Source: a virus (taxonomy: Duplodnaviria > Heunggongvirae > Uroviricota > Caudoviricetes). Taken from it: a stretch of 43,512 nucleotides of DNA. The notes under the pieces are model-generated. The model saw nothing but the letters and a program-made list of their open reading frames with translations, was not told where the DNA came from and did no database searches. Where the stretch lies: IMG/VR virus record IMGVR_UViG_2690315815_000009; one strand, given 5' to 3'. Shown here piece after piece: positions 3,609-43,512 of the stretch (its first letter is position 1; each line of letters opens with the position of its first letter). The position numbers were made by a program, and so were the translations under genes.

Positions 3609-3890
3609 CTATATCTGATGTCGGTCTTTCGGAGGCTTTACCAGTTCGTTAAATGCGGCCTCCATTTGATCGTAATCGCACGCAGGCAGTGCATATAAAT
3701 CCTCACGCTCCAGATTTGCCAGGCGCGCCAGCATTGTCGCTGTCCGCTCTTCAAGACCACTTTTATCGTTACTGAACATAATGCGGTCGCGTAATTTTGG
3801 TTCGCGAATAGTAATTGTATCGCGGCTCTCCCCCTTAATAATAAACGGGCGAGAGAGCGTAATAGTCATACTGTCTAATAATGATTCCAT
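3609..3890 (-). CDS. Tail assembly chaperone gpE (P2 E-like); possible E+E' frameshift product
   Basis: 93 aa between tail tube and tape measure genes; the -1 frame is open across the 108-nt gap to the tape measure start. Confidence 0.7.
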   Translation of the reverse strand: MESLLDSMTITLSRPFIIKGESRDTITIREPKLRDRIMFSNDKSGLEERTATMLARLANLEREDLYALPACDYDQMEAAFNELVKPPKDRHQI

Positions 3891-11896: not shown

Positions 11897-12312
11897 AGAG
11901 CGTAAACGTGATCAGCTGCGATAAGGTCTGCGACCTCCGGTGAATCAACAACAATTTCACGGCCTGCGGCAACAATCTCGCGAACGCGACGCCCGTTCAC
12001 GTAGTGATAAACGTCCAGCGTGTTACGCAACTTGACGCGGCGCGTAGCCGGTGCGAGCTCCTGCTCTTGTGACTGTGAAACGATAGCGCTCGCGATTGAT
12101 TGAGCGAGTTCATTATCGGTCCCGGACGCAGTATTCACTGTAATCTCGATGCCTCCCGCGTCACCGGATTGCTCGTTCAGAATATCGAGCTCTGACTCAG
12201 CGCCGGCAACGATTGATTCCAGTTCCGCAATAGTCCCGCTGCGCGGTAATTCGCGACCGAGCTGAGCGCTCAGATCGTCAATACGCGCCAGCAATTCTGT
12301 TTTTGTGCTCAT
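11893..12312 (-). CDS. DNA packaging protein FI-like
   Basis: 139 aa directly after the major capsid gene; N-terminus (MSTKTELLARIDDLSAQLGREL...GTIAELESIVA) resembles lambda FI. Confidence 0.4.
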   Translation of the reverse strand: MSTKTELLARIDDLSAQLGRELPRSGTIAELESIVAGAESELDILNEQSGDAGGIEITVNTASGTDNELAQSIASAIVSQSQEQELAPATRRVKLRNTLDVYHYVNGRRVREIVAAGREIVVDSPEVADLIAADHVYAL

Positions 12313-12346
12313 GTTGATTCCTTAACAAAAAAGAGCCTTTCGACTC

Positions 12347-29058: not shown

Positions 29059-30245
29059 CTAAAAGTCCTTTGATTCTTGCTTGGTTAACAAAATGACATA
29101 ATTTTATTTAATGCCATAACAACTTAACAATATATCATAATATGATTATTATGGTGTAGCTTGTCGCATCTACGCTCCATTACAAACAGATGTAAGATAT
29201 AACCTATATGTTTTAGCCAGCAAATTCGAAAGCATTCAAAGTAGTCTCATCGAACTCTCGAAACCCTATGTCTTCGGGTATAAAATATTTAAATCCATTT
29301 GCATAATATCGACTCATGTTTATTATATTCTCCCCATTCACCATTAAGATTTGACATTATTTTCAACAATCGGTTATTGCAAGATTGAAATATATTTTTA
29401 CTTGACACAATATTCCATGTAGCCCAGCGATTCGACTTACCCCCAACTATACGGACAATCTAAATTAAATCGATGATTTTTTGATACATTCTCCTCTCTC
29501 CATTACTTTATGTTTTTGTTCCCCAAAAATACCTTGCTCTCTAAAAAATAATTGTTCTTTAAGTTCAAAATCGAGATCTACATGAGCGTTAGATACAAAG
29601 CTAATATGTTGAAATGTCTTTCCCCCCCCATAACGGCATTGTTATCTAAACTATGTTACACAAATATAATATTACCCTTTCAACGTAATCCAAGAATAAG
29701 ATTAATGCCATTATATATATCATAAATATGATATTTTGTATATTTTTATCATTTAGCCTTGATTGTACTAGGTGTACTCTCAACGAAGTAGGGAAAGTCT
29801 GTTCCTCGCTCACAGCTGCCCTTCAGTAAGCGAAAAAATGCCTACTCGGTGCCATATACAGCCATTGTTATTAACAGCAGGGAATAATTCAAAACTGAAA
29901 TTAAATATCTACCTTTTACAGTAGAAATAGTTCCTCCAGGACACTATCCATTGCCGGGCACAATCACTCGGGGTATAACGATATAAAATATGTTCATGAT
30001 AGTGCAGGTTCGTATATTAAGTTCAGCAGCGAAAACATGCCTTACAGGTTTCCGGTTTTGGGAGCGTCGTTACAGGATCCTGCGCATACCGTTCCCATCT
30101 GTTGAATTAAAGGTTTCACAGCCTTTGCCGATATCACCTTTTACCTTACCTGTGATGCGTTCAGTGCTCAGCGTTGTTTACTGTAGCTCTCGGGACTGAT
30201 TACAGACCGCGTCTTAAAAACCAATCCTTACTCTAAAGGGAATTC

Positions 30246-32180: not shown

Positions 32181-32404
32181 TCATCTGGTGGTGAGCTGTG
32201 CAGGGTTGGCGTAACCGGCTAAGTGAACCCGGCGCTTCCACAGAAGCCCCCACACAGCCCACCATAATGCGAATGTGGCCGTGCCTAACACATAAAAAAA
32301 CCGCTAACGCGGCTATGCGTCACTTAGATATCCGGGACGCCAATCCCGGCAACCGATTTTGCGGCTGCGCGGAAACTATAGCCCCGGACTTTTTCTAAGT
32401 CAAT

Positions 32405-33580: not shown

Positions 33581-33991
33581 TCACGCCCCTTTCTTTGCTA
33601 TCGGAGTGATGGAACTCAGCAGCAGGCGGCAGCGACCAGGCGCGCCAATGCGCTGCCCGGTTATCTTGTCGTAAGTTTCATGCGGTGAGGCACACCAGGT
33701 TGTCGCTGTTTCGTGGAGTTTCACTTGCCGCTCACCATTTCTGCGAATCGCGATCCCGGTGTGCGTTTTGCCCTTACGTTTCACTGCTGGCGCTGCGGCT
33801 ACGGATGCCTGACGGGCAGGCTTAGCAGGGGTTGAAAAATTGCCTGCTTTAGGTCTTGGCACAAAAACCGCGCGAGTGCGCGCACGTGGCCCGACGTTCA
33901 TATTCCACAAAATGACGTCGAGATAGTTTTTACCGTCGTCTATGTGTCCTTTGTCCGACGGGTACTCTAATTTGCCTGGAGTGGTGGTCAT
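33581..33991 (-). CDS. Hypothetical protein
   Basis: 136-aa ORF downstream of the helicase gene; basic, low complexity; uncertain. Confidence 0.3.
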   Translation of the reverse strand: MTTTPGKLEYPSDKGHIDDGKNYLDVILWNMNVGPRARTRAVFVPRPKAGNFSTPAKPARQASVAAAPAVKRKGKTHTGIAIRRNGERQVKLHETATTWCASPHETYDKITGQRIGAPGRCRLLLSSITPIAKKGA

Positions 33992-34029
33992 TGGTCTTTC
34001 CTCGGTTATTTCACGCTGGTCAGGCGTGG

Positions 34030-36190: not shown

Positions 36191-36411
36191 ATGCCCAAAG
36201 CCTCTGAGAGAACGCGACAGCCAGCCTCATAGGCAGCGCCAGAGAGATTTTGCTCACGCAGTTTCGCTTTTTCTTCTTCGTACTTTTCCCATACAGAACG
36301 TGCAGCTGCGACGCGGCCATCGAATATGGGGCGGATCTCTGCAACATGTGCCGGGCGTCCATTCAGGTGCCAGCCGTTACGCCAGGTAATGCGGTCAATA
36401 TGTCTTAACAT
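36187..36411 (-). CDS. Hypothetical small early protein
   Basis: 74-aa ORF between the CII-like gene and the initiator gene, 4-nt overlap with the initiator start. Confidence 0.35.
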   Translation of the reverse strand: MLRHIDRITWRNGWHLNGRPAHVAEIRPIFDGRVAAARSVWEKYEEEKAKLREQNLSGAAYEAGCRVLSEALGI

Positions 36412-36450: not shown

Positions 36451-36927
36451 TCATGCATGGTGGTCTTGCGCAGTGCGTATCACTGCTCCTCGCGTCGCTA
36501 CCAGCGCCGCTATTGCTTCGTCAATTTCCTGAATAGTTAACTCTGGCGCGAAGTGGAGATGTACAGCGTTAATCGCTTCCACCCCTTCTTTTGCCGCCAG
36601 CGTTGCCAGCAAAACGGGATCGCCCGGCGACTCCAGACGTGCCCGCCGTTCTGCGGGTAGCACGGCTTTCATCACACTGGCCAGCACCTGAGTTTTTCGG
36701 CGCGCCGCCGTTGTCTCGCCACGTAACCAGCGAAAGATTTTCTGCCGATTGTTGTTGATGGCTCTCCAGTCCACGTTGCCGTCCGCGTCCTCAAATTCAT
36801 GTAGTCTCAACTCATCATTGCGTCCCTGACTGAACCAGGCCCGGCAGATTTCAATCGTGACGAGTTCCTGCCCTGCCCTTGCCGCCCAGGTCAAAATCTC
36901 TTTTTGTAATTCCTCTTGGTTTTCCAT
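36451..36927 (-). CDS. YdaT-like / CII-like regulatory protein
   Basis: 158 aa following cro; resembles Rac prophage YdaT as I recall it (...NNNRQKIFRWLRGET...). Confidence 0.5.
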   Translation of the reverse strand: MENQEELQKEILTWAARAGQELVTIEICRAWFSQGRNDELRLHEFEDADGNVDWRAINNNRQKIFRWLRGETTAARRKTQVLASVMKAVLPAERRARLESPGDPVLLATLAAKEGVEAINAVHLHFAPELTIQEIDEAIAALVATRGAVIRTAQDHHA

Positions 36928-36985: not shown

Positions 36986-37216
36986 TTAAGCTGCTTCCGT
37001 TTTAGGCAAGCTGTCATCTGGGTTTGGGTAAAGATCCGGTCTAAGATCATGAGGGGTCACGCGCCATTCAAGAGCTTCAGATGTGCGCAAAACCTCTTCA
37101 CCGGGAACCCGTCCTTTGAACCAGAGGCTTACCGTTTGTGGTTTTTTCCCTAATCGCCGCCCTAACTCGGATTGACTCATTACGGAAAGAATTTTGTCTT
37201 GCAGTTGTTTATCCAT
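36986..37216 (-). CDS. Cro-like repressor (YdaS-type HTH)
   Basis: 76 aa from ATG 37216 with AAGGAG SD 5 nt upstream (the ORF track extends to a TTG at 37252); HTH pattern SQSELGRRLGKKPQTVSLW; divergent from cI. Confidence 0.65.
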   Translation of the reverse strand: MDKQLQDKILSVMSQSELGRRLGKKPQTVSLWFKGRVPGEEVLRTSEALEWRVTPHDLRPDLYPNPDDSLPKTEAA

Positions 37217-37242
37217 ATGGACTCCTTGTGTCCGCGTCATCA

Positions 37243-37280
37243 TTACAAACAATAACTGTAATTACAAATTATATTTGCAA
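37243..37280. promoter_or_regulatory. Two tandem 19-bp operators (TTACAA-N7-TTGTAA-like) between cro and cI
   Basis: TTACAAACAATAACTGTAA (37243-37261) and TTACAAATTATATTTGCAA (37262-37280); a third copy lies at 37854-37872. Confidence 0.5.
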
Positions 37281-37299
37281 TGCTCCCTACAATTAAACC

Positions 37300-37728
37300 T
37301 TGTATCCTTACGGTATGAACACAAAAACGAAAAACATGGCTTTTGCTAGCCGACTACAACGGATTCTAAAAGACTTAGGCTGGTCTCAATCTGAGTTAGC
37401 TCGCCATATTGGGGTTACGGCTCAATCAGTTCAGGCATGGTGTAATGGGGTAACTCCAAGAAAAGATAAATTAGACAAGCTAGCAAAAGTGACCGGATAC
37501 CCTGTTCATTTTTTCTTCATGAATGAAGGGGAATATTTGGATGAATCCACACTACACCCGGGTAATTACAATCAAGAACTAACCCCGCAAGAACAGGCTC
37601 TACTGCAACTATTCAGAGGACTGCCTGAGAGCGAAAAAAATAAATTAATCAATGAGCTAAAAGAAAAAAGAGAGCACTTCGATCTACTGCTAAAAGAACT
37701 ACTTGAAGCCAAAAACCAGACAAAATAG
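37300..37728 (+). CDS. CI-like repressor (HTH, no obvious S24 peptidase domain)
   Basis: HTH pattern SQSELARHIGVTAQSVQAW; divergent from cro. Track start is TTG 37300; ATG starts at 37315 and 37336 are alternatives; a TACAAT -10-like hexamer at 37288 suggests a short or absent leader. Confidence 0.7.
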   Translation: MYPYGMNTKTKNMAFASRLQRILKDLGWSQSELARHIGVTAQSVQAWCNGVTPRKDKLDKLAKVTGYPVHFFFMNEGEYLDESTLHPGNYNQELTPQEQALLQLFRGLPESEKNKLINELKEKREHFDLLLKELLEAKNQTK

Positions 37729-37846
37729 TTCAGTTCAAATTTCCAGGCCAGCCGCTGCTGGCATGCAACTTTCCCCTAACACAAAAACACCTTTACACAG
37801 TGAATATTTTTTTGCCCCTCACTACAAATTATTTTTTAAAAACACA

Positions 37847-37876
37847 TTGACCATTACAAATACAAATTGTAAAGTC
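37847..37876 (+). promoter_or_regulatory. Candidate early-left promoter with overlapping operator (pL/oL-like)
   Basis: TTGACC (37847-37852), 17-bp spacer containing the operator TTACAAATACAAATTGTAA, then TAAAGT (37870-37875). Confidence 0.35.
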
Positions 37877-38272
37877 ACTTTCATCAACAACGCTTACCCA
37901 GCGGCAGTTGTTCAGAAACACGTTCTGACAGCCGGAAAGACGGCACCAAATTTTGCGCGTCGGCGCCAACACGGTGACAGAGGGAAAGACTTCACCGGCA
38001 TATGGCACATGTGTCGAAGCGGTCTGGATGGAAGCGGAGCCTTAACGCGTTGTCTCCATAGCAGGTAGCCGGAATGTGCAAGCCACAGCCAGGTATGAGC
38101 GATTGATTCACCATCAAGGCGATACGGTGTGACCACCAGGGAAGAGTCCTGGCTACAACACGAGAGCGCACTTCATCGACTCAACTTTGAGCTTTGTCGT
38201 TAAATTTTGAAATGGCGGAGTGCGCTCCCGGTTGTGGTGAACAGGTGTTTAACGGGAACTCCCTGCCCGTTA

Positions 38273-38298
38273 CCCGGTTCGATTCCGGGCGCCCATCA
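38273..38298 (+). other. tRNA-like 3' fragment (T-arm plus acceptor 3' strand), not a complete tRNA
   Basis: CCCGG-TTCGATT-CCGGG followed by CGCCCATCA; no matching 5' acceptor strand, D-arm or anticodon arm upstream. Confidence 0.3.
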
Positions 38299-38738
38299 TC
38301 AATTTGCTGTGTTTAGTCTTTGCCCAGTCCGCACGATGGGCCATTTTTTCACACAGCCAGGTTTTATCGCTGTGCCTGAGTCCCCAACAGGAGAGGCCAA
38401 ACCCGCAGCGTGACACCAGGGAAAGACCGGAGGAAGTACCACGCCTGACCAGCGTTGACCATGAGCCTGACCAGCTCAAAACAGGAAAGACCAGCCCGGG
38501 CCTGACCAGCCCTGTACGGTCGTAATGGAAACATAACGACGCCGGAAACGTAACCGGCACCCTTTAGATAGCAAAAGACCCGCACAAGGCGGGCCAGTTA
38601 CCCCGAACGGCGACCAAACCATTCGGATTTATCACAAGTGACCAAACTTGTGATGAGGAAAGACCAACGACACTGACGCTATGGAAGCTGATCAATATTC
38701 GCTGATCGGCTCTGAGTATACATTACCAAGGAGTCGCT

Positions 38739-39059
38739 ATGGAAGCGCGCACCATCCCAGTAACACTCTTTATTCATTATGCAACTTCAACTTTCAGCCA
38801 CGAAAAGCTGCTTGTTGCGACTGTTGATATGTCAAAAAATTTTCCAGACAGGTACATCCTTCTGGAAAGCCGCGAAATTGAAATTACCGTTAACCAGCCC
38901 GAGCCAATCGACATCATCGGTTTACAGGTCGAGCAACTGCGTGAACAAAAACAGAAAACAGTCGCCGACGCCCAACAGCGTATTGCTGCTATCGATGACA
39001 AAATCCAGCAGTTACTTTGCATCGAATACACGCCAGATACCGATGAGCTCCCCTACTAA
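38739..39059 (+). CDS. Hypothetical early-left protein
   Basis: 106-aa ORF with AAGGAG SD; first sizeable ORF of the early-left operon. Confidence 0.4.
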   Translation: MEARTIPVTLFIHYATSTFSHEKLLVATVDMSKNFPDRYILLESREIEITVNQPEPIDIIGLQVEQLREQKQKTVADAQQRIAAIDDKIQQLLCIEYTPDTDELPY

Positions 39060-39089
39060 AAACCACTGACCTGTAATGAGGAAAGACCA

Positions 39090-41306
39090 ATGACCATTTT
39101 TAACGGCTTGTTAGAAGCGAAAAAAGGCGCGCTCAAAAACGGCGCGATCCCGGCGCTGGCCATCGCCATCGCCGCCCCTAACAAAAAAGTTGCCGAGAAC
39201 ATCATCATCGGCAAATTGTGGGAAGCCTACCCTGACCACGGCGACAACTATTTCAAACCTAAAATCTGGGAAGATGCCCCGGGCCAACCGCGCCCAGGCG
39301 TCGGTGAGTTTGATGAGACGTTTGCCACAGAACACAGTTTTGATGGCGAAAAATGGGTAGTTAACACTCCTGTTGATTCAGATTGCAGTTCAGCAGATAT
39401 CTCACAGGTTAGCGACCTGATGAAACTGCCGGCTCGTGAACGATTCGCCGCCGTTCTGCTGTTCAGCCACGACGCCAACGAAGTCGACAGTGAATTGCTT
39501 GTGCAGACGCGTGAATACCTGGAGATGCTCGATAACAGTGATACTGACAGTGAGGATGAGGTTGACGCGTTTAACCGCATCGTTCTTGATGCCATGGTGG
39601 CGTGTAAGCCCATCGAGTACATGCATATTGCTGGATTGAATAATCTGGTACATGCAATTTTGGCAAGTTGCGATACCCAGGAACAAAACCCGACCAGTTG
39701 GACTATCTCCAAATTTATAAAAAAATGGGTAGAGAATCCCGGTAAACGAGATGAAATGCTGCCGGAGGTAAAACCAGAAACAGCATCCGCACGTCCTTAC
39801 AAACAGACTCACGCCACTCTGGATCGTGAAATTGCCTGCGCCCTGTTACCTGTTGCCCCGGAAAAAATCACCCCCAGCATCCTGAAAGCGGCAGACGAAA
39901 TAATCAGTCAGGACAGGGAAGATTTTAAACGCTGGTCAATGGCCTTGCGCACAACGGATCAGATCCTTGCCTATGACCGCGCATCAGTATTCGGTGTTAT
40001 TCAGAGCGCCCCCGCAAAAGACACGTACCACTTCCCACAATCCCTGCGCAGTCACATCGACAACTGGCTGCAAGCTAACGGGCAGCGTGATGCAAATGCT
40101 GTTGAAGAGAAGCCAAAGGAAGCAGCACCCAAGGATGATGTAAAAGTCACCAACCACGGCGGCGGACGATTCTCAATTGATGGGATGATGTCAGAAACAC
40201 CCTCAAATCAGGGCGAAAAAAGCGAAGCTGCAAATGCTGGAGAACGTAGTTTGCAGCAGTTGCGTGAGCAGTTTGTCACGCCTCGCCATGTGTATGACGT
40301 ACCTGAAAATAACGCCGTATCACAGAGGGAACCTGCAGCTATTACCCTGGCAGAAGAGACTCCTCCACAAGAACAACTTAGCGAGCAGGTAAAGGATCTG
40401 GTGCAGAACGTTGACGCGCTGGTTGAGCGGATCCATGCCGAAGAGCACAAGCGGCAGAATGCAATCTCAGCTATCGAAACGGAGTTAAAGGACTCAGATG
40501 ACACGGATAACCTGGCATTGTGGAAGAACGTATTCAAAACCGATGAGCGCTTCACCAGTGCTTTCTCTCAGAATGGCGGCGGCACATCCATCAACGGCAC
40601 TTATATAGCGATGAAAGCGACTCGCGAATTTGGGCCATTTGGTATTGGCTGGGGGGTAGAGGTGCTGGAGGAGCGCTTTGATAAAGGCGCACCAATAGTT
40701 CGCAAAAAACAGGTTGGTGAAAAAATAGAATGGGATCTGATTCAAGACGGTGTTGGCGGGTACCTATGTGAAATGCACCACACCATGAAAGTGAGAGTCT
40801 GGTACATATTGAATGGGGTACGCGGTGAGTCCGAGGCTTACGGATGCACACCTTATATCTACGACACTAAATACGGACCAACAAGCGACGGCGAAGCACC
40901 GAAGAAATCCTGGACGGATGCTGTTAAGAAAGCGCTATCCCCTCTCGGATTCAGCGCCGATATTTTCATGGGCCTGTACGACAATCCGGAATACCGCCAG
41001 AGGAATAAAGCTGAGTTTGATATCAAGAATGCCAGCGAGAATGCGGAAGATGCTACCCGTCTGCGTAAGGAACTGGATGAGAAGCTTATCAACGTTGCCA
41101 ATACGCTGGCCGCCGCGGTAACCGCCAACGAAGTAAACAAGGTATTTGGCCTCATCGCCCGCGAAGTGGATGTACACAGGAAAGCAGCGGAAACCAAAGG
41201 CGATAAAGAATATTCATCGTATCTGGGATCACGTCTGCGCCGTATCACCGACATTAAAACTGAACGCCTCGCCGCCCTTACCGCTGCACAGGAGCAAACA
41301 GCATGA
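39090..41306 (+). CDS. Large recombination protein with C-terminal Rad52/Erf-like single-strand annealing domain
   Basis: 738 aa; residues about 500-640 carry Rad52/Erf-like motifs (FGPFGIGWG...; ...SWTDAVKKALSPLGFSADIFMGLYD, compare Rad52 TDGLKRALRSFGNALGN); early-left position typical of phage recombination genes. Confidence 0.45.
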   Translation: MTIFNGLLEAKKGALKNGAIPALAIAIAAPNKKVAENIIIGKLWEAYPDHGDNYFKPKIWEDAPGQPRPGVGEFDETFATEHSFDGEKWVVNTPVDSDCSSADISQVSDLMKLPARERFAAVLLFSHDANEVDSELLVQTREYLEMLDNSDTDSEDEVDAFNRIVLDAMVACKPIEYMHIAGLNNLVHAILASCDTQEQNPTSWTISKFIKKWVENPGKRDEMLPEVKPETASARPYKQTHATLDREIACALLPVAPEKITPSILKAADEIISQDREDFKRWSMALRTTDQILAYDRASVFGVIQSAPAKDTYHFPQSLRSHIDNWLQANGQRDANAVEEKPKEAAPKDDVKVTNHGGGRFSIDGMMSETPSNQGEKSEAANAGERSLQQLREQFVTPRHVYDVPENNAVSQREPAAITLAEETPPQEQLSEQVKDLVQNVDALVERIHAEEHKRQNAISAIETELKDSDDTDNLALWKNVFKTDERFTSAFSQNGGGTSINGTYIAMKATREFGPFGIGWGVEVLEERFDKGAPIVRKKQVGEKIEWDLIQDGVGGYLCEMHHTMKVRVWYILNGVRGESEAYGCTPYIYDTKYGPTSDGEAPKKSWTDAVKKALSPLGFSADIFMGLYDNPEYRQRNKAEFDIKNASENAEDATRLRKELDEKLINVANTLAAAVTANEVNKVFGLIAREVDVHRKAAETKGDKEYSSYLGSRLRRITDIKTERLAALTAAQEQTA

Positions 41307-42103: not shown

Positions 42104-42328
42104 ATGCTGCGATGGCAACCGGGAGCAACTCTGCTCTCCGCATTTGATATCAAAATTGGTCGACTGTCGGCCAGCGTCAGGAAACAGACTTTGACCGAGT
42201 CTGATATTGCCCGTGCCTGCCAGAAGGCAGATGACGCAATAAGCTACATAATGAGGAAAGACCATGAAAAGCGATCACGACATAATCACCAGAGAAGAAA
42301 TGGTCGAGCTGACGGGAAGCCCACTTAA
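42104..42328 (+). CDS. Hypothetical small early protein
   Basis: ORF from ATG 42104 with GGAGGA SD (the track extends upstream to 42074); its 3' end overlaps the excisionase-like gene. Confidence 0.3.
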   Translation: MLRWQPGATLLSAFDIKIGRLSASVRKQTLTESDIARACQKADDAISYIMRKDHEKRSRHNHQRRNGRADGKPT

Positions 42329-42527: not shown

Positions 42528-43512
42528 CTGGATGCCGCCTCGTGTTTACCAGGGCAAAGCGGCCTACGAATTCAGGAATAAAGATAACAAAGCGATACGC
42601 CTGTGCGCATTGGATGCACCACGATCAGCCGTATGGCTGGCATATGAAAAAGCGGTCGGTGACGAAAAAGAAAGAAATACTTTTCAGGCGCTCACGGAAC
42701 AATTCATGACCTCCCCTGATTTTATGGATTTGGCAGTCGAAACCCGGAAAGACTACACAAAATATTCCGGAAAAGTTCTGCCTGTCTTCGGGAAGATCGA
42801 CCCGGATAAAATCAAACCTGAACATATTCGGCGCTATATGGATCAACGCGGTTTATCAAGCCGAACTCAGGCAAACAGGGAAAAAAGCTTTATGTCCCGG
42901 GTATTCCGTTGGGGTTATGAACGAGGTTATGTTCAGAGGAATCCTTGTCAGGGAGTTAAACAGTTTAAAGAGAAAGCTCGCGAACGTTATATTACGGATG
43001 AAGAATATCAGGCCGTTTATGAAGTGTCTCCTGATGTTGTTCGCGTAGCAATGGAGATTGCCTACTTATGCGTGGCCAGACAGAGTGATGTACTTTCATT
43101 GCAGAAAGACCAGCTGTTCGATTCCGGGATCTACATTCGTCAGGGAAAAACCGGCGTTAAGCAAATCAAAGCCTGGTCGCCTCGTCTGCAGAAAGCGATA
43201 GCTCTGGCTCGTTCTCTGCCATTAAAAACGGGAATCAGTAGCCTGTTTGTGATTCATCAAACTACCGGTGGCAAGTATACCCGTGATGGTTTTAACTCTC
43301 GTTGGCGTGATGTCAAAGCGGCAGCACAGGAAAAATATCCTCATCTGCAAATAGACTTCACATTTCATGATCTGAAAGCAAAAGGTATCTCTGATCTGGA
43401 AGGCAGCCTGGAAGAGAAGCAAGCAATTTCCGGGCATAAGAACCCGCGACAGACAGCAGCATATGACCGGAAAGTTAAAGTAGTGCCCGTAGTTGGTGGC
43501 CAGAGAAAATGA
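42496..43512 (+). CDS. int: Tyrosine site-specific integrase (lambda Int family)
   Basis: Start taken at ATG 42496 (MAGKRKNPADNWMPPRVY..., arm-binding-like N-terminus as in lambda Int); the ORF track begins at 42466. C-terminal catalytic region with HxLRH-like and terminal Tyr motifs; stop codon at the window edge. Confidence 0.85.
   Translation: MAGKRKNPADNWMPPRVYQGKAAYEFRNKDNKAIRLCALDAPRSAVWLAYEKAVGDEKERNTFQALTEQFMTSPDFMDLAVETRKDYTKYSGKVLPVFGKIDPDKIKPEHIRRYMDQRGLSSRTQANREKSFMSRVFRWGYERGYVQRNPCQGVKQFKEKARERYITDEEYQAVYEVSPDVVRVAMEIAYLCVARQSDVLSLQKDQLFDSGIYIRQGKTGVKQIKAWSPRLQKAIALARSLPLKTGISSLFVIHQTTGGKYTRDGFNSRWRDVKAAAQEKYPHLQIDFTFHDLKAKGISDLEGSLEEKQAISGHKNPRQTAAYDRKVKVVPVVGGQRK

Follow-up and report, generated by a model that had tools for sequence, protein, structure and literature searches.

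The early-left leader and its gene context

The 43,512-nt stretch of DNA analysed here (IMG/VR record IMGVR_UViG_2690315815_000009; hereafter the window) is a lambdoid prophage with a P2-like contractile tail, sited in E. coli between leuZ, a tRNA-Leu gene, and yecA, and our subject is the untranslated leader that lies in it between a pL-type promoter and the first gene of the early-left operon (Table 1). Of 5426 complete E. coli genomes, 475 match a 1-kb query around this leader at an identity of at least 90%. The order of the locus, in which a cI-like gene is followed by the pL-type site, the leader, and then the recombination genes and int, bears out the first-pass annotation, which had been made from the letters alone and had placed the region at the head of the early-left operon. 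An operator-like inverted repeat (TTACAA..TTGTAA) can be read in the sequence overlapping the promoter, and a second one lies between the cro-like and cI-like genes. RefSeq is blank from the end of the cI-like gene (37728) to 38739, the position at which the same annotation had the first credible open reading frame (ORF) begin; this 106-aa ORF is followed by genes for a 738-aa exonuclease-family protein, Gp157, a 60-aa ORF, DUF4224 and the integrase.

Table 1. Features of the leader and of the early genes around it, in order of position in the window.
Feature	Position	Strand	Remarks
Functional 15-mer copy, start of 136-aa gene after helicase	ATG at 33990	-	
Functional 15-mer copy, start of 74-aa gene after ydaT	ATG at 36411	-	
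cro-like gene	36986-37252	-	
cI-like helix-turn-helix (HTH) gene	37336-37728	+	
pL-type promoter TTGACC-17-TAAAGT	37847-37875	+	Sole promoter-like site in 37200-39200
Untranslated leader	37882-38738	+	~860 nt; 1-kb annotation-free stretch in RefSeq
5' leader stem-loops	37887-37911, 37912-37928	+	Minimum-free-energy (MFE) fold; 5' leader is 37882-37992
UGACAK-stem-GAAAGA-stem hairpins	37931-37944 (GCCG/CGGC), 37980-37993 (GAGG/CUUC)	+	MFE fold, covariation
Module A	37993-38236	+	244-nt structured RNA, 8 helices including an H-type pseudoknot; alignment A3
tRNA-like remnant	38234-38301	+	Starts GUGG where tRNA-Arg(UCU) starts in other loci
RprA 3'-half homologue	38301-38349	+	AAUUUGCUGUGUUUAGUCUUUGCCC, terminator hairpin 38322-38341, U-run 38344-38349 (U6)
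Hairpin CCAGG-GAAAGA-CCGG	38416-38430	+	Array 38416-38512
Hairpin ACGC-CUGACCA-GCGU	38441-38455	+	Same array
Hairpin UGAGC-CUGACCA-GCUCA	38462-38478	+	Same array
Unpaired AGGAAAGACCAG	38483-38494	+	Same array
Hairpin GGGC-CUGACCA-GCCC	38498-38512	+	Same array
Near-invariant block	38541-38594	+	GCCGG-AAACGUAA-CCGGC, then CACCCUUUAGAUAGCAAAAG, then hairpin CCCGC-ACAAG-GCGGG (38579-38593)
GACCAA(A)-loop hairpin CCGAACGG-CGACCAAA-CCAUUCGG	38603-38626	+	Centroid fold
GACCAA-loop hairpin AUCACAAGU-GACCAA-ACUUGUGAU	38631-38654	+	Centroid fold
Start-less motif copy GAGGAAAGACCAACG	38655-38669	+	Ends ACG in the window, ATG in most relatives
Shine-Dalgarno AAGGAG, then first real gene (106 aa, PHROG 2479, function unknown)	38728-39059	+	
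Functional motif copy GAGGAAAGACCAATG, start of 738-aa exonuclease-family gene	39078-39092	+	
Near-copy GAGGAAAGACCATG, start of DUF4224 gene	~42252-42266		

The leader is non-coding and appears to be kept by selection as RNA. Overlapping ORFs in several frames had already been taken as an argument for a non-coding function, and the comparison with the corresponding leader of 'Stenotrophomonas' phage BUCT708 (OM816834.1) confirms it: the lengths of 17 of 20 insertions and deletions are not multiples of three, and the substitution rates are flat, at 0.22-0.26 in each of the three phases, in contrast to the 0.24, 0.20 and 0.51 of the exonuclease gene next to it. Identity to BUCT708 is 83% over 37880-37992, 79% in the segment that we call module A and 87% over 38351-38738 (77-87% over the modules overall), as against 59-68% for the five flanking genes compared (the cI-like and cro-like genes, the 106-aa ORF, the exonuclease and Gp157). 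The leader is thus more conserved than the genes next to it, which points to selection on the nucleotide sequence itself. We obtained 33 distinct leader variants from 40 viral contigs that share an invariant 23-mer (GCACAAGGCGGGCCAGTTACCCC) as an exact match; no protein gene with a conserved reading frame replaces the leader in relatives, and the motif arrays described below are conserved in position in the 33 variants. The region is also GC-rich, as had been noted (53.8%, against 48.0% for the window).

A hidden small ORF behind the GAGGAAAGACCAATG that relatives carry near the 3' end of the leader was considered and rejected: the ORFs that follow the start-less motif copy there are 8-47 aa long, have differing frames and stops and are not conserved, and the window has ACG at this place. 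The first-pass annotation had found no arginine-rich N-like protein, and our search of the window for such peptides in all six frames likewise returned off-frame noise only, annotation being equally blank. The arginine-rich motif of lambda N is RRRERRAEK, and a 42-aa ORF in an alternative frame inside ydaT (36672-36800, minus strand) ends in the similar ARQRRRAEKLR; we judged this candidate to be probably due to chance.

The whole early regions of BUCT708 and of a second 'Stenotrophomonas' phage, BUCT709 (OM816835.1), are syntenic with that of this prophage, and their leaders are 77-87% identical to the window, which is unexpected given the stated host.

RNA modules in the 5' part of the leader

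The first-pass annotation suggested that the leader could be a structured RNA element. Conserved structured RNA is indeed present, but as a concatenation of modules and not as one element, and three of the modules had gone unmentioned: a 244-nt pseudoknotted RNA, a tRNA-like element and an RprA-type terminator in mid-leader. The Rfam search that it recommended gives only sub-threshold matches in this region, to RprA and tRNA-Sec, besides noise. Ahead of these modules, the 5' leader folds into five small hairpins in the MFE structure, and the stems around its GAAAGA loops covary between relatives (GCCG/CGGC, UCCG/CGGG, GCGG/CCGC and GAGG/CUUC).

A leader directly behind pL in a lambdoid phage without an N gene is also what phage HK022 has, and a put-like RNA had been one of the functions first suggested for the region. 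In such a system the nascent leader would bind RNA polymerase and suppress termination without the help of a protein, and the first 113 nt of our leader are both structured and 83% conserved. However, HK022 putL aligns locally with a score of 11, against a mean of 11.1 and a maximum of 17 for shuffled sequences, so that there is no sequence similarity to speak of. The predicted architecture differs too, since put is a 73-nt, V-shaped RNA of two stems with a triplex (PMC9378689) and the 5' leader is a row of five small hairpins, and a put-like element would leave the rest of the leader unexplained. We consider an RNA-only antiterminator of this type highly improbable.

Module A is supported by an alignment of 72 distinct sequences (A3, with the window as row 1). 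In it, 49 base pairs are paired in 97.9% of cases, compared with 31-43% after sliding the partners by 1-3 columns; 16 pairs have changes on both sides, and a pair in the pseudoknot goes from C-G to A-U in 24 sequences with zero breaks. The window copy has the invariant GGUAGCCGGAAUGUGCAAG, all of the helices H1-H8 and the pseudoknot CACC/GGUG, and nhmmer finds it as a single copy (E=2e-42, 144.5 bits) with a model of which the window sequence is itself a part. Rfam 15, searched over 37700-39150 at gathering thresholds and at E<=10 with GOLLD, ROOL, RNase P, tmRNA, YrlA and ribozymes included, has no match to module A, and the module has no Rfam match in six other loci either. GOLLD and ROOL are large structured non-coding RNAs (ncRNAs) of prophages that often lie beside tRNA genes. 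Module A resembles them as a structured prophage ncRNA near tRNA genes, and differs from them in its much smaller size, its host range and the lack of any match to their models at E<=10.

The module is not confined to leaders of this kind. In BLAST searches against phages, the module A sub-segment alone is conserved (72-77%) in unannotated gaps of unrelated phages: in the epsilon15-like phages SPN1S, Tyrion and PAT1 it lies between the terminase and portal genes, antisense to both, and it is also present in Klebsiella phage SopranoGao and in the P1-like D6 and SJ46. Its invariant 19-mer (GGTAGCCGGAATGTGCAAG) is exact in at least 120 viral contigs, and among species-representative genomes it occurs in 24 stretches, all from Enterobacterales except two contigs from metagenome-assembled genomes labelled Oscillospiraceae and Bacillota. 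A query of 37985-38265 matched 665 E. coli genomes, with 196 of the places on plasmids, and the segment was never annotated. No protein is a constant neighbour of module A among the loci examined. What does recur is a tRNA gene on the same strand, which abuts module A at a fixed distance in 43 of 127 loci among the matches listed; among these same matches, tRNA-Arg(UCU) is found at the 3' end in 26 loci, starting at the last G of the closing helix (...CGUU/GUGGCAU..., the slash marking the junction), and a tRNA with the anticodon CAU ends ~15 nt before the 5' end in 17. Some leader variants are without module A and have their second hairpin joined straight to the RprA-like segment, which indicates that module A is an inserted cassette and not an ancestral part of the leader. 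Its 3' domain (H7 and H8; model positions 138-238) occurs alone in nine loci (L062, L128, L169, L189, L072, L178, L034, L101 and L182), in L128 between a GAAAGA hairpin and a tRNA-like element, and may be a separable tRNA-leader hairpin.

The tRNA-like remnant of ~65 nt that follows module A in the window has a perfect T arm (CCCGG-UUCGAUU-CCGGG, 38273-38289), an anticodon-arm-like hairpin and a partial acceptor stem; the fold thus contains the GGUUCGAWUCC motif on a 5-bp stem with an adjoining acceptor-like outer stem. Its junction with module A (GUU/GUGG) is the same as the junction between module A and tRNA-Arg in SPN1S, and L128 has the same tRNA-like architecture built from other stem sequences. 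From these features we read the element as a decayed, though apparently structurally maintained, tRNA. A possible parallel is offered by stable RNAs that are embedded in tRNA operons, namely species 1 and 2 RNAs of phage T4 and the small RNA (sRNA) from the 3' external transcribed spacer (3'ETS) of leuZ in E. coli. Module A likewise lies in tRNA arrays or is fused to the 5' end of a tRNA, and the RprA-like module follows the tRNA-like element as a 3'ETS would. Module A differs from both in being larger, pseudoknotted and found in phages of Enterobacterales, and we know of no sequence relationship between it and these RNAs.

The RprA-like segment holds the only plus-strand site in the region that a terminator scan picks out (38327-38341). 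The Rfam model of RprA (RF00034) scores the window at 37.4 bits (E=0.016) and the related loci L128 and L130 at 56.2 and 50.6 bits, in each case over the 3' half only and below the gathering cut-off of 70 bits. The L128 copy is 90-92% identical over 50 nt to the annotated chromosomal rprA of 5424 of the 5426 E. coli genomes. Alignment A4 shows an invariant UUGCUGUGU.UAGUCUU.GCCC block together with the terminator, so that the 3' strand, terminator and U-tail are all present, and the changes in the terminator stem are compensatory in BUCT708. What the window segment and its phage homologues share with RprA is the last ~50 nt, namely AAUUGCUGUGUGUAGUCUUUGCCC, the terminator, the U-run and a trailing AACA. 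The 5' half of RprA (~58 nt), whose stem-loop carries the seed for rpoS, csgD and hdeD (PMC5861431), aligns with no leader variant; in the phages this seed-bearing half is replaced by leader, tRNA-like or hairpin sequence, and the RprA-like copy stands within an operon leader instead of forming a free-standing gene. Two variants (L147 and L152) have a different long hairpin and then CUAUUUUGCUGUUGCG in the usual RprA-like slot, at -230 to -130 from the invariant block.

Hairpin repeats and start-associated units

The first-pass annotation drew attention to arrays of repeats, with CCTGACCAGC at 38444, 38466 and 38501 and GGAAAGAC at 37934, 37983, 38420, 38484 and 38657, and all of these positions are exact. 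Compared with dinucleotide-preserving shuffles of the window, GGAAAGAC has 11 matches against 1.23 +/- 1.05 expected, with none of 100 shuffles reaching 11, and CCTGACCAGC has 5 against 0.03 expected. The GACCA pentamers that it called frequent number 9 in 859 nt, out of 42 on the plus strand of the 43.5-kb window, an enrichment of ~11-fold. The repeats are therefore real, but they are the loops of predicted short hairpins with covarying stems, and they are found at real gene starts as well. The hairpins come in the forms UGACAK-stem-GAAAGA-stem, stem-CUGACCA-stem and stem-GACCAA-stem, with GACCA as the common core of most loops. Of 206 GAAAGA instances, 100 have a stem of 4 bp or more around them, compared with ~1.8% at random positions, and 16 distinct stems are used; for CUGACCA in the leader variants the figure is 43 of 44, compared with a background of ~2%, with 5 distinct stems that include ACGC/GCGU, GAGC/GCUC and GGGC/GCCC. 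The GCCGG-AAACGUAA-CCGGC hairpin of the window is a loop-degenerate form of the GCCGG-GAAAGA-CCGGC found in relatives, and the CCCGC-ACAAG-GCGGG hairpin behind it is invariant among leader variants. The hairpin first placed at 38632-38653 is real (38631-38654), its pairing being kept by compensatory changes (the stems in relatives are ACAAGU, ACAAGC/GCUUGU, GUAGGG/CCCUAC or GCAGGG/CCCUGC), and the GACCAA(A) hairpin before it has a compensatory variant in L130 (GGGCGG/CCACCC). Folded as a single sequence, 38351-38738 gives a z-score of -2.6, and the order and spacing of the hairpins are kept in the 33 variants. In L152, a moron ORF is inserted between leader hairpins 1 and 2.

Short inverted repeats that recur in intergenic DNA could in principle be operators, iterons or recombination sites for a DNA-binding protein. 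We regard this as extremely improbable: the arms covary around a fixed, asymmetric spacer, the opposite of what is seen in a dimeric DNA-binding site, and no conserved -10 follows the -35-like TGACA. Moreover, the copies lie on the transcribed strand of both early operons wherever the operon is known, those on the minus strand at 33994/34015 and 36414/36438 belonging to the rightward-type operon.

At the RNA level, the arrangement recalls nutL of lambda, which also has a repressor gene, pL and a leader in this order, short hairpins with A-rich loops, and a terminator to pass. A nut- or rrn-type system of processive antitermination would treat the hairpins with purine-rich loops as analogues of boxB, and CACCCUUUAGAU (38559-38570) with CCCGC-ACAAG-GCGGG as a boxA/boxB-like site for the loading of host Nus factors, either alone or together with a phage protein that has escaped recognition; polymerase would then pass the RprA-type terminator and Rho sites. 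The stems of 4-6 bp and A-rich loops of 5-7 nt are boxB-like (boxB loops are GAAAA or GAAGA in lambda, GACAA in P22 and CUAACC in phi21), the block is invariant, the terminator lies inside the leader, and a long untranslated leader would presumably need protection from Rho. The leader has many hairpins with 5-7-nt loops and one invariant block (CCCUUUAG + CCCGC-ACAAG-GCGGG) that may combine boxA with boxB, its resemblance to boxA being weak (7 of 11 positions). Several features do not fit, however. The window has neither an N gene nor an N-like arginine-rich motif, and the leader has ~11 hairpins of several loop classes instead of one nut site. The 6-7-nt loops are not GNRA-like pentaloops, and the same hairpins lie 8-13 nt upstream of the ribosome-binding sites of internal genes in both operons, as well as before tRNA genes in unrelated phages. 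Antitermination of this type thus seems to us unlikely.

The GGAAAGAC instances that lack a stem represent another form, GAGGAAAGACC(A/G)ATG, in which a spacer joins a Shine-Dalgarno sequence to a start codon. As an exact 15-mer it starts three early genes of the window, on two strands and in both early operons, and the two copies on the minus strand have an NNNC-CUGACCA-GNNN hairpin 8-9 nt upstream. Of the 39 copies in the window and 12 related contigs, 31 begin an ORF of 40 aa or more, and 20 have a CUGACC(A/U)-loop hairpin with covarying stems 8-19 nt upstream. In contigs of this phage group the 15-mer occurs 2-5 times within ~10 kb, as against single matches in other contigs. The leader holds ORF-less copies of this unit of a CUGACCA hairpin followed by GAGGAAAGACC(A/G)ATG. 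Two more GGAAAGAC copies, at 29616 (minus strand) and at 42746 (plus strand, inside int), lie outside both the leader and gene-start contexts.

With a motif at start codons and an upstream inverted repeat in part of the copies, these units resemble the start-associated sequences (SAS) and extended SAS (ESAS) of Cluster K mycobacteriophages, which are the nearest parallel described so far. There, a 13-bp repeat is found where some of the genes start, and in half of the cases it has an inverted repeat upstream (PMC3203893). In both systems a short asymmetric repeat marks the starts of some non-structural genes, about half of the copies have the inverted repeat, and a role in translation is assumed. 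The two differ in sequence and host, which are unrelated, in that the loop is fixed and the arms covary here whereas the arms of ESAS have a consensus and the spacer varies, and in the stacking of several ORF-less copies in one operon leader.

The fact that the leader units are those of real gene starts, with ACG in place of ATG in one copy, also raises the question of whether the leader is an accumulation of scars, that is, of gene-boundary cassettes left over from lost genes through repeat recombination, together with hitch-hiking morons and without a function. The presence or absence of module A among variants, the one variant with an inserted moron ORF and the resemblance of the tRNA-like element to a decayed tRNA would all agree with such a history. 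It is difficult to reconcile, however, with a leader that is ~80-87% identical between phages whose adjacent genes are only 59-68% identical, or with the order and spacing kept in 33 variants, and neutral decay would not yield compensatory stems around fixed loops. We consider functionless remnants very unlikely.

The GAAAGA hairpin has a distribution of its own. CCGG-GAAAGA-CCGG occurs in at least 120 viral contigs, beyond this phage group, and among the matches listed (IMG/VR loci L299-L409) the flanks of a 22-nt element, yTGrCAG-CCGG-GAAAGA-CCGG-CA, are conserved in 110 distinct contexts, mostly intergenic and with a local GC content of 41-69%. Among these matches, a tRNA gene of one of eight isotypes follows the hairpin on the same strand after 3-9 nt in 23 of 117 instances, and no protein neighbour is shared, the largest protein cluster being present at 8 of 111 loci. 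One locus (L315, 4700-6100) has four copies of the element, each before a tRNA or a tRNA-like unit; these tRNA-like units go unscored by the Rfam tRNA model. We rejected the possibility that the element is a sigma-70 promoter with TGACA as its -35, for lack of a conserved or enriched -10 element and of a consistent U-run. The family in the window keeps the UGACAK flank and the GAAAGA loop while the stems covary, and its GAAAGA hairpins closely precede module A or, where a variant has no module A, the RprA-like RNA. The positions before tRNAs, module A and RprA-like RNA suggest that the GAAAGA element tends to precede stable RNAs.

A host protein might also be the target of these repeats. GGA is part of all GGAAAGAC copies, those at gene starts overlap the Shine-Dalgarno sequence in the manner of CsrA sites, and the 3' half of RprA is the Hfq-binding part of an Hfq-dependent sRNA (PMC5861431), so that the leader could be a sponge or target for CsrA or Hfq in which the GGA loops and the RprA-type module titrate or recruit these proteins during induction. 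On inspection, however, the first G of the GGA belongs to the stem, the loop being GAAAGA and not ANGGAN, the CUGACCA and GACCAA loops have no GGA, and the motif has at most one ARN triplet. The wide range of GC content of the contexts of the 22-nt element also implies hosts that may lack CsrA or Hfq. We find this proposal decidedly unlikely.

What the leader transcript may do

The reading that we prefer, and to which we give about as much credence as doubt, is that the leader is the untranslated RNA of a repressor-controlled early-left (pL-type) operon, processed and attenuated, and equipped with ncRNA modules and binding hairpins (Table 1). Upon derepression, RNA polymerase would start at pL and transcribe the two UGACAK-stem-GAAAGA-stem hairpins and then the cassette of module A and the tRNA-like element. 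Real tRNA genes adjoin module A in other phages, and for this reason it is probably the tRNA-processing machinery that frees it, with RNase P cutting at the GUGG junction. The RprA 3'-half copy with its intrinsic terminator would then act as a leaky attenuator, partial termination being expected from so weak a hairpin, and the terminated or processed transcripts would gain an RprA-type, Hfq-type 3' end. The read-through RNA would continue into about nine short hairpins with CUGACCA, GACCAA(A), GAAAGA or ACAAG loops and the start-less GAGGAAAGACCAAYG motif. Since early genes of both operons actually start with this unit, we read the copies in the leader as extra sites, cooperative or decoy, for one putative trans-acting factor that would co-control the translation or stability of the early genes. 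The first-pass suggestion of a protein-binding array or riboregulator is thus still the best reading of the hairpin part, although a binding partner was not found. The most economical reading of the pL transcripts would be as ncRNA precursors as well as mRNA leaders. What the sequence comparisons establish is that the leader is non-coding and conserved, together with its structures, its homologies and the link between motif and gene starts; transcription from pL, processing, attenuation and the factor are inferred.

A number of observations weigh against this reading. Concerning the cassette, ARAGORN finds 0 tRNA genes in the window, and the Rfam tRNA model has no match, only tRNA-Sec appearing at 19.3 bits against a cut-off of 47; the element thus fails both detectors, which makes RNase P cleavage an analogy with the tRNA loci, and it is known from just two sequence variants. 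The terminator of the window is weak, with a 5-bp stem, -9 kcal/mol and a z-score of -0.18. A switch in which the RprA-like strand (GUCUUUGCC) would pair with GGAAAGAC was tried and rejected, since only 6 bp can form and the BUCT708-type change to GUCUUGGCC occurs without a change in the motif. Among the neighbouring genes, which encode exonuclease-family, Gp157 and unknown-function proteins, we found no candidate for an RNA-binding protein. The covariation counts often come from related sequences and can overstate the support for pairing. Finally, the presence of the GAAAGA hairpin in very diverse phages without a shared neighbouring protein means that its role may be generic, for example in RNA processing or stability, and not one of specific regulation.

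A more far-reaching version is possible but doubtful. In it, the pL leader would be a polycistronic ncRNA precursor resembling a tRNA operon and containing two undescribed classes of RNA. Module A would be a mobile cassette of Enterobacterales phages, fused to rare-codon tRNA genes, that acts in trans on a host or defence function; the 22-nt element, common to very diverse phages, would mark the 5' boundaries of stable RNAs (tRNAs, tRNA-like RNAs, module A and the RprA-like sRNA) and be read by a universal host machine (RNase P or RNA polymerase); and the captured RprA 3' end would plug the leader into the Hfq network.

The components of the leader are of known kinds, namely structured leaders, tRNA-linked stable RNAs, sRNA 3' modules and start-associated repeats. 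For the module A family, the phage-borne RprA 3' half, the 22-nt GAAAGA element and the stacked ORF-less start units, we found no prior description in Rfam 15, in RefSeq/GenBank annotation or in the literature searched, though others may exist. In a temperate phage, the leader of an early operon decides if, and at what speed, the genes for recombination and excision are expressed. The present leader uses neither N/nut nor put, the two solutions known from lambdoid phages, and still its conservation exceeds that of the genes behind it. Three unannotated RNA features are now to hand: module A, which ~12% of complete E. coli genomes share with P1-like phage-plasmids and epsilon15-like phages and which is linked to tRNA-Arg(UCU) and tRNA(CAU); the phage-borne, Hfq-binding end of RprA; and the hairpin that precedes tRNA genes in many unrelated phages and is related to a start-codon motif. 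They may reveal how phages process, stabilise or co-regulate their non-coding and coding early transcripts.

Some further observations concern other RNAs of this prophage and its relatives. Integration at the window end (43512; L002 11914-12000) is next to leuZ of the glyW-cysT-leuZ operon and may separate leuZ from its native 3'ETS, a known sRNA sponge. At 32184-32381 on the minus strand there are three above-gathering Rfam matches, to C4 antisense RNA (75 bits), isrK (80) and c4-a1b1 targets (53); they adjoin an ORF6N/antirepressor-like gene, and the arrangement resembles the antirepressor control module of P1 immI, here in a lambdoid prophage. L130 has a match to the Rfam model of sRNA-Xcc1 (12230-12318, 68 bits) ~5 kb from the leader, and in phage Tyrion (L004) a match to the int-alpA RNA (3662-3726, 44 bits) lies near module A.

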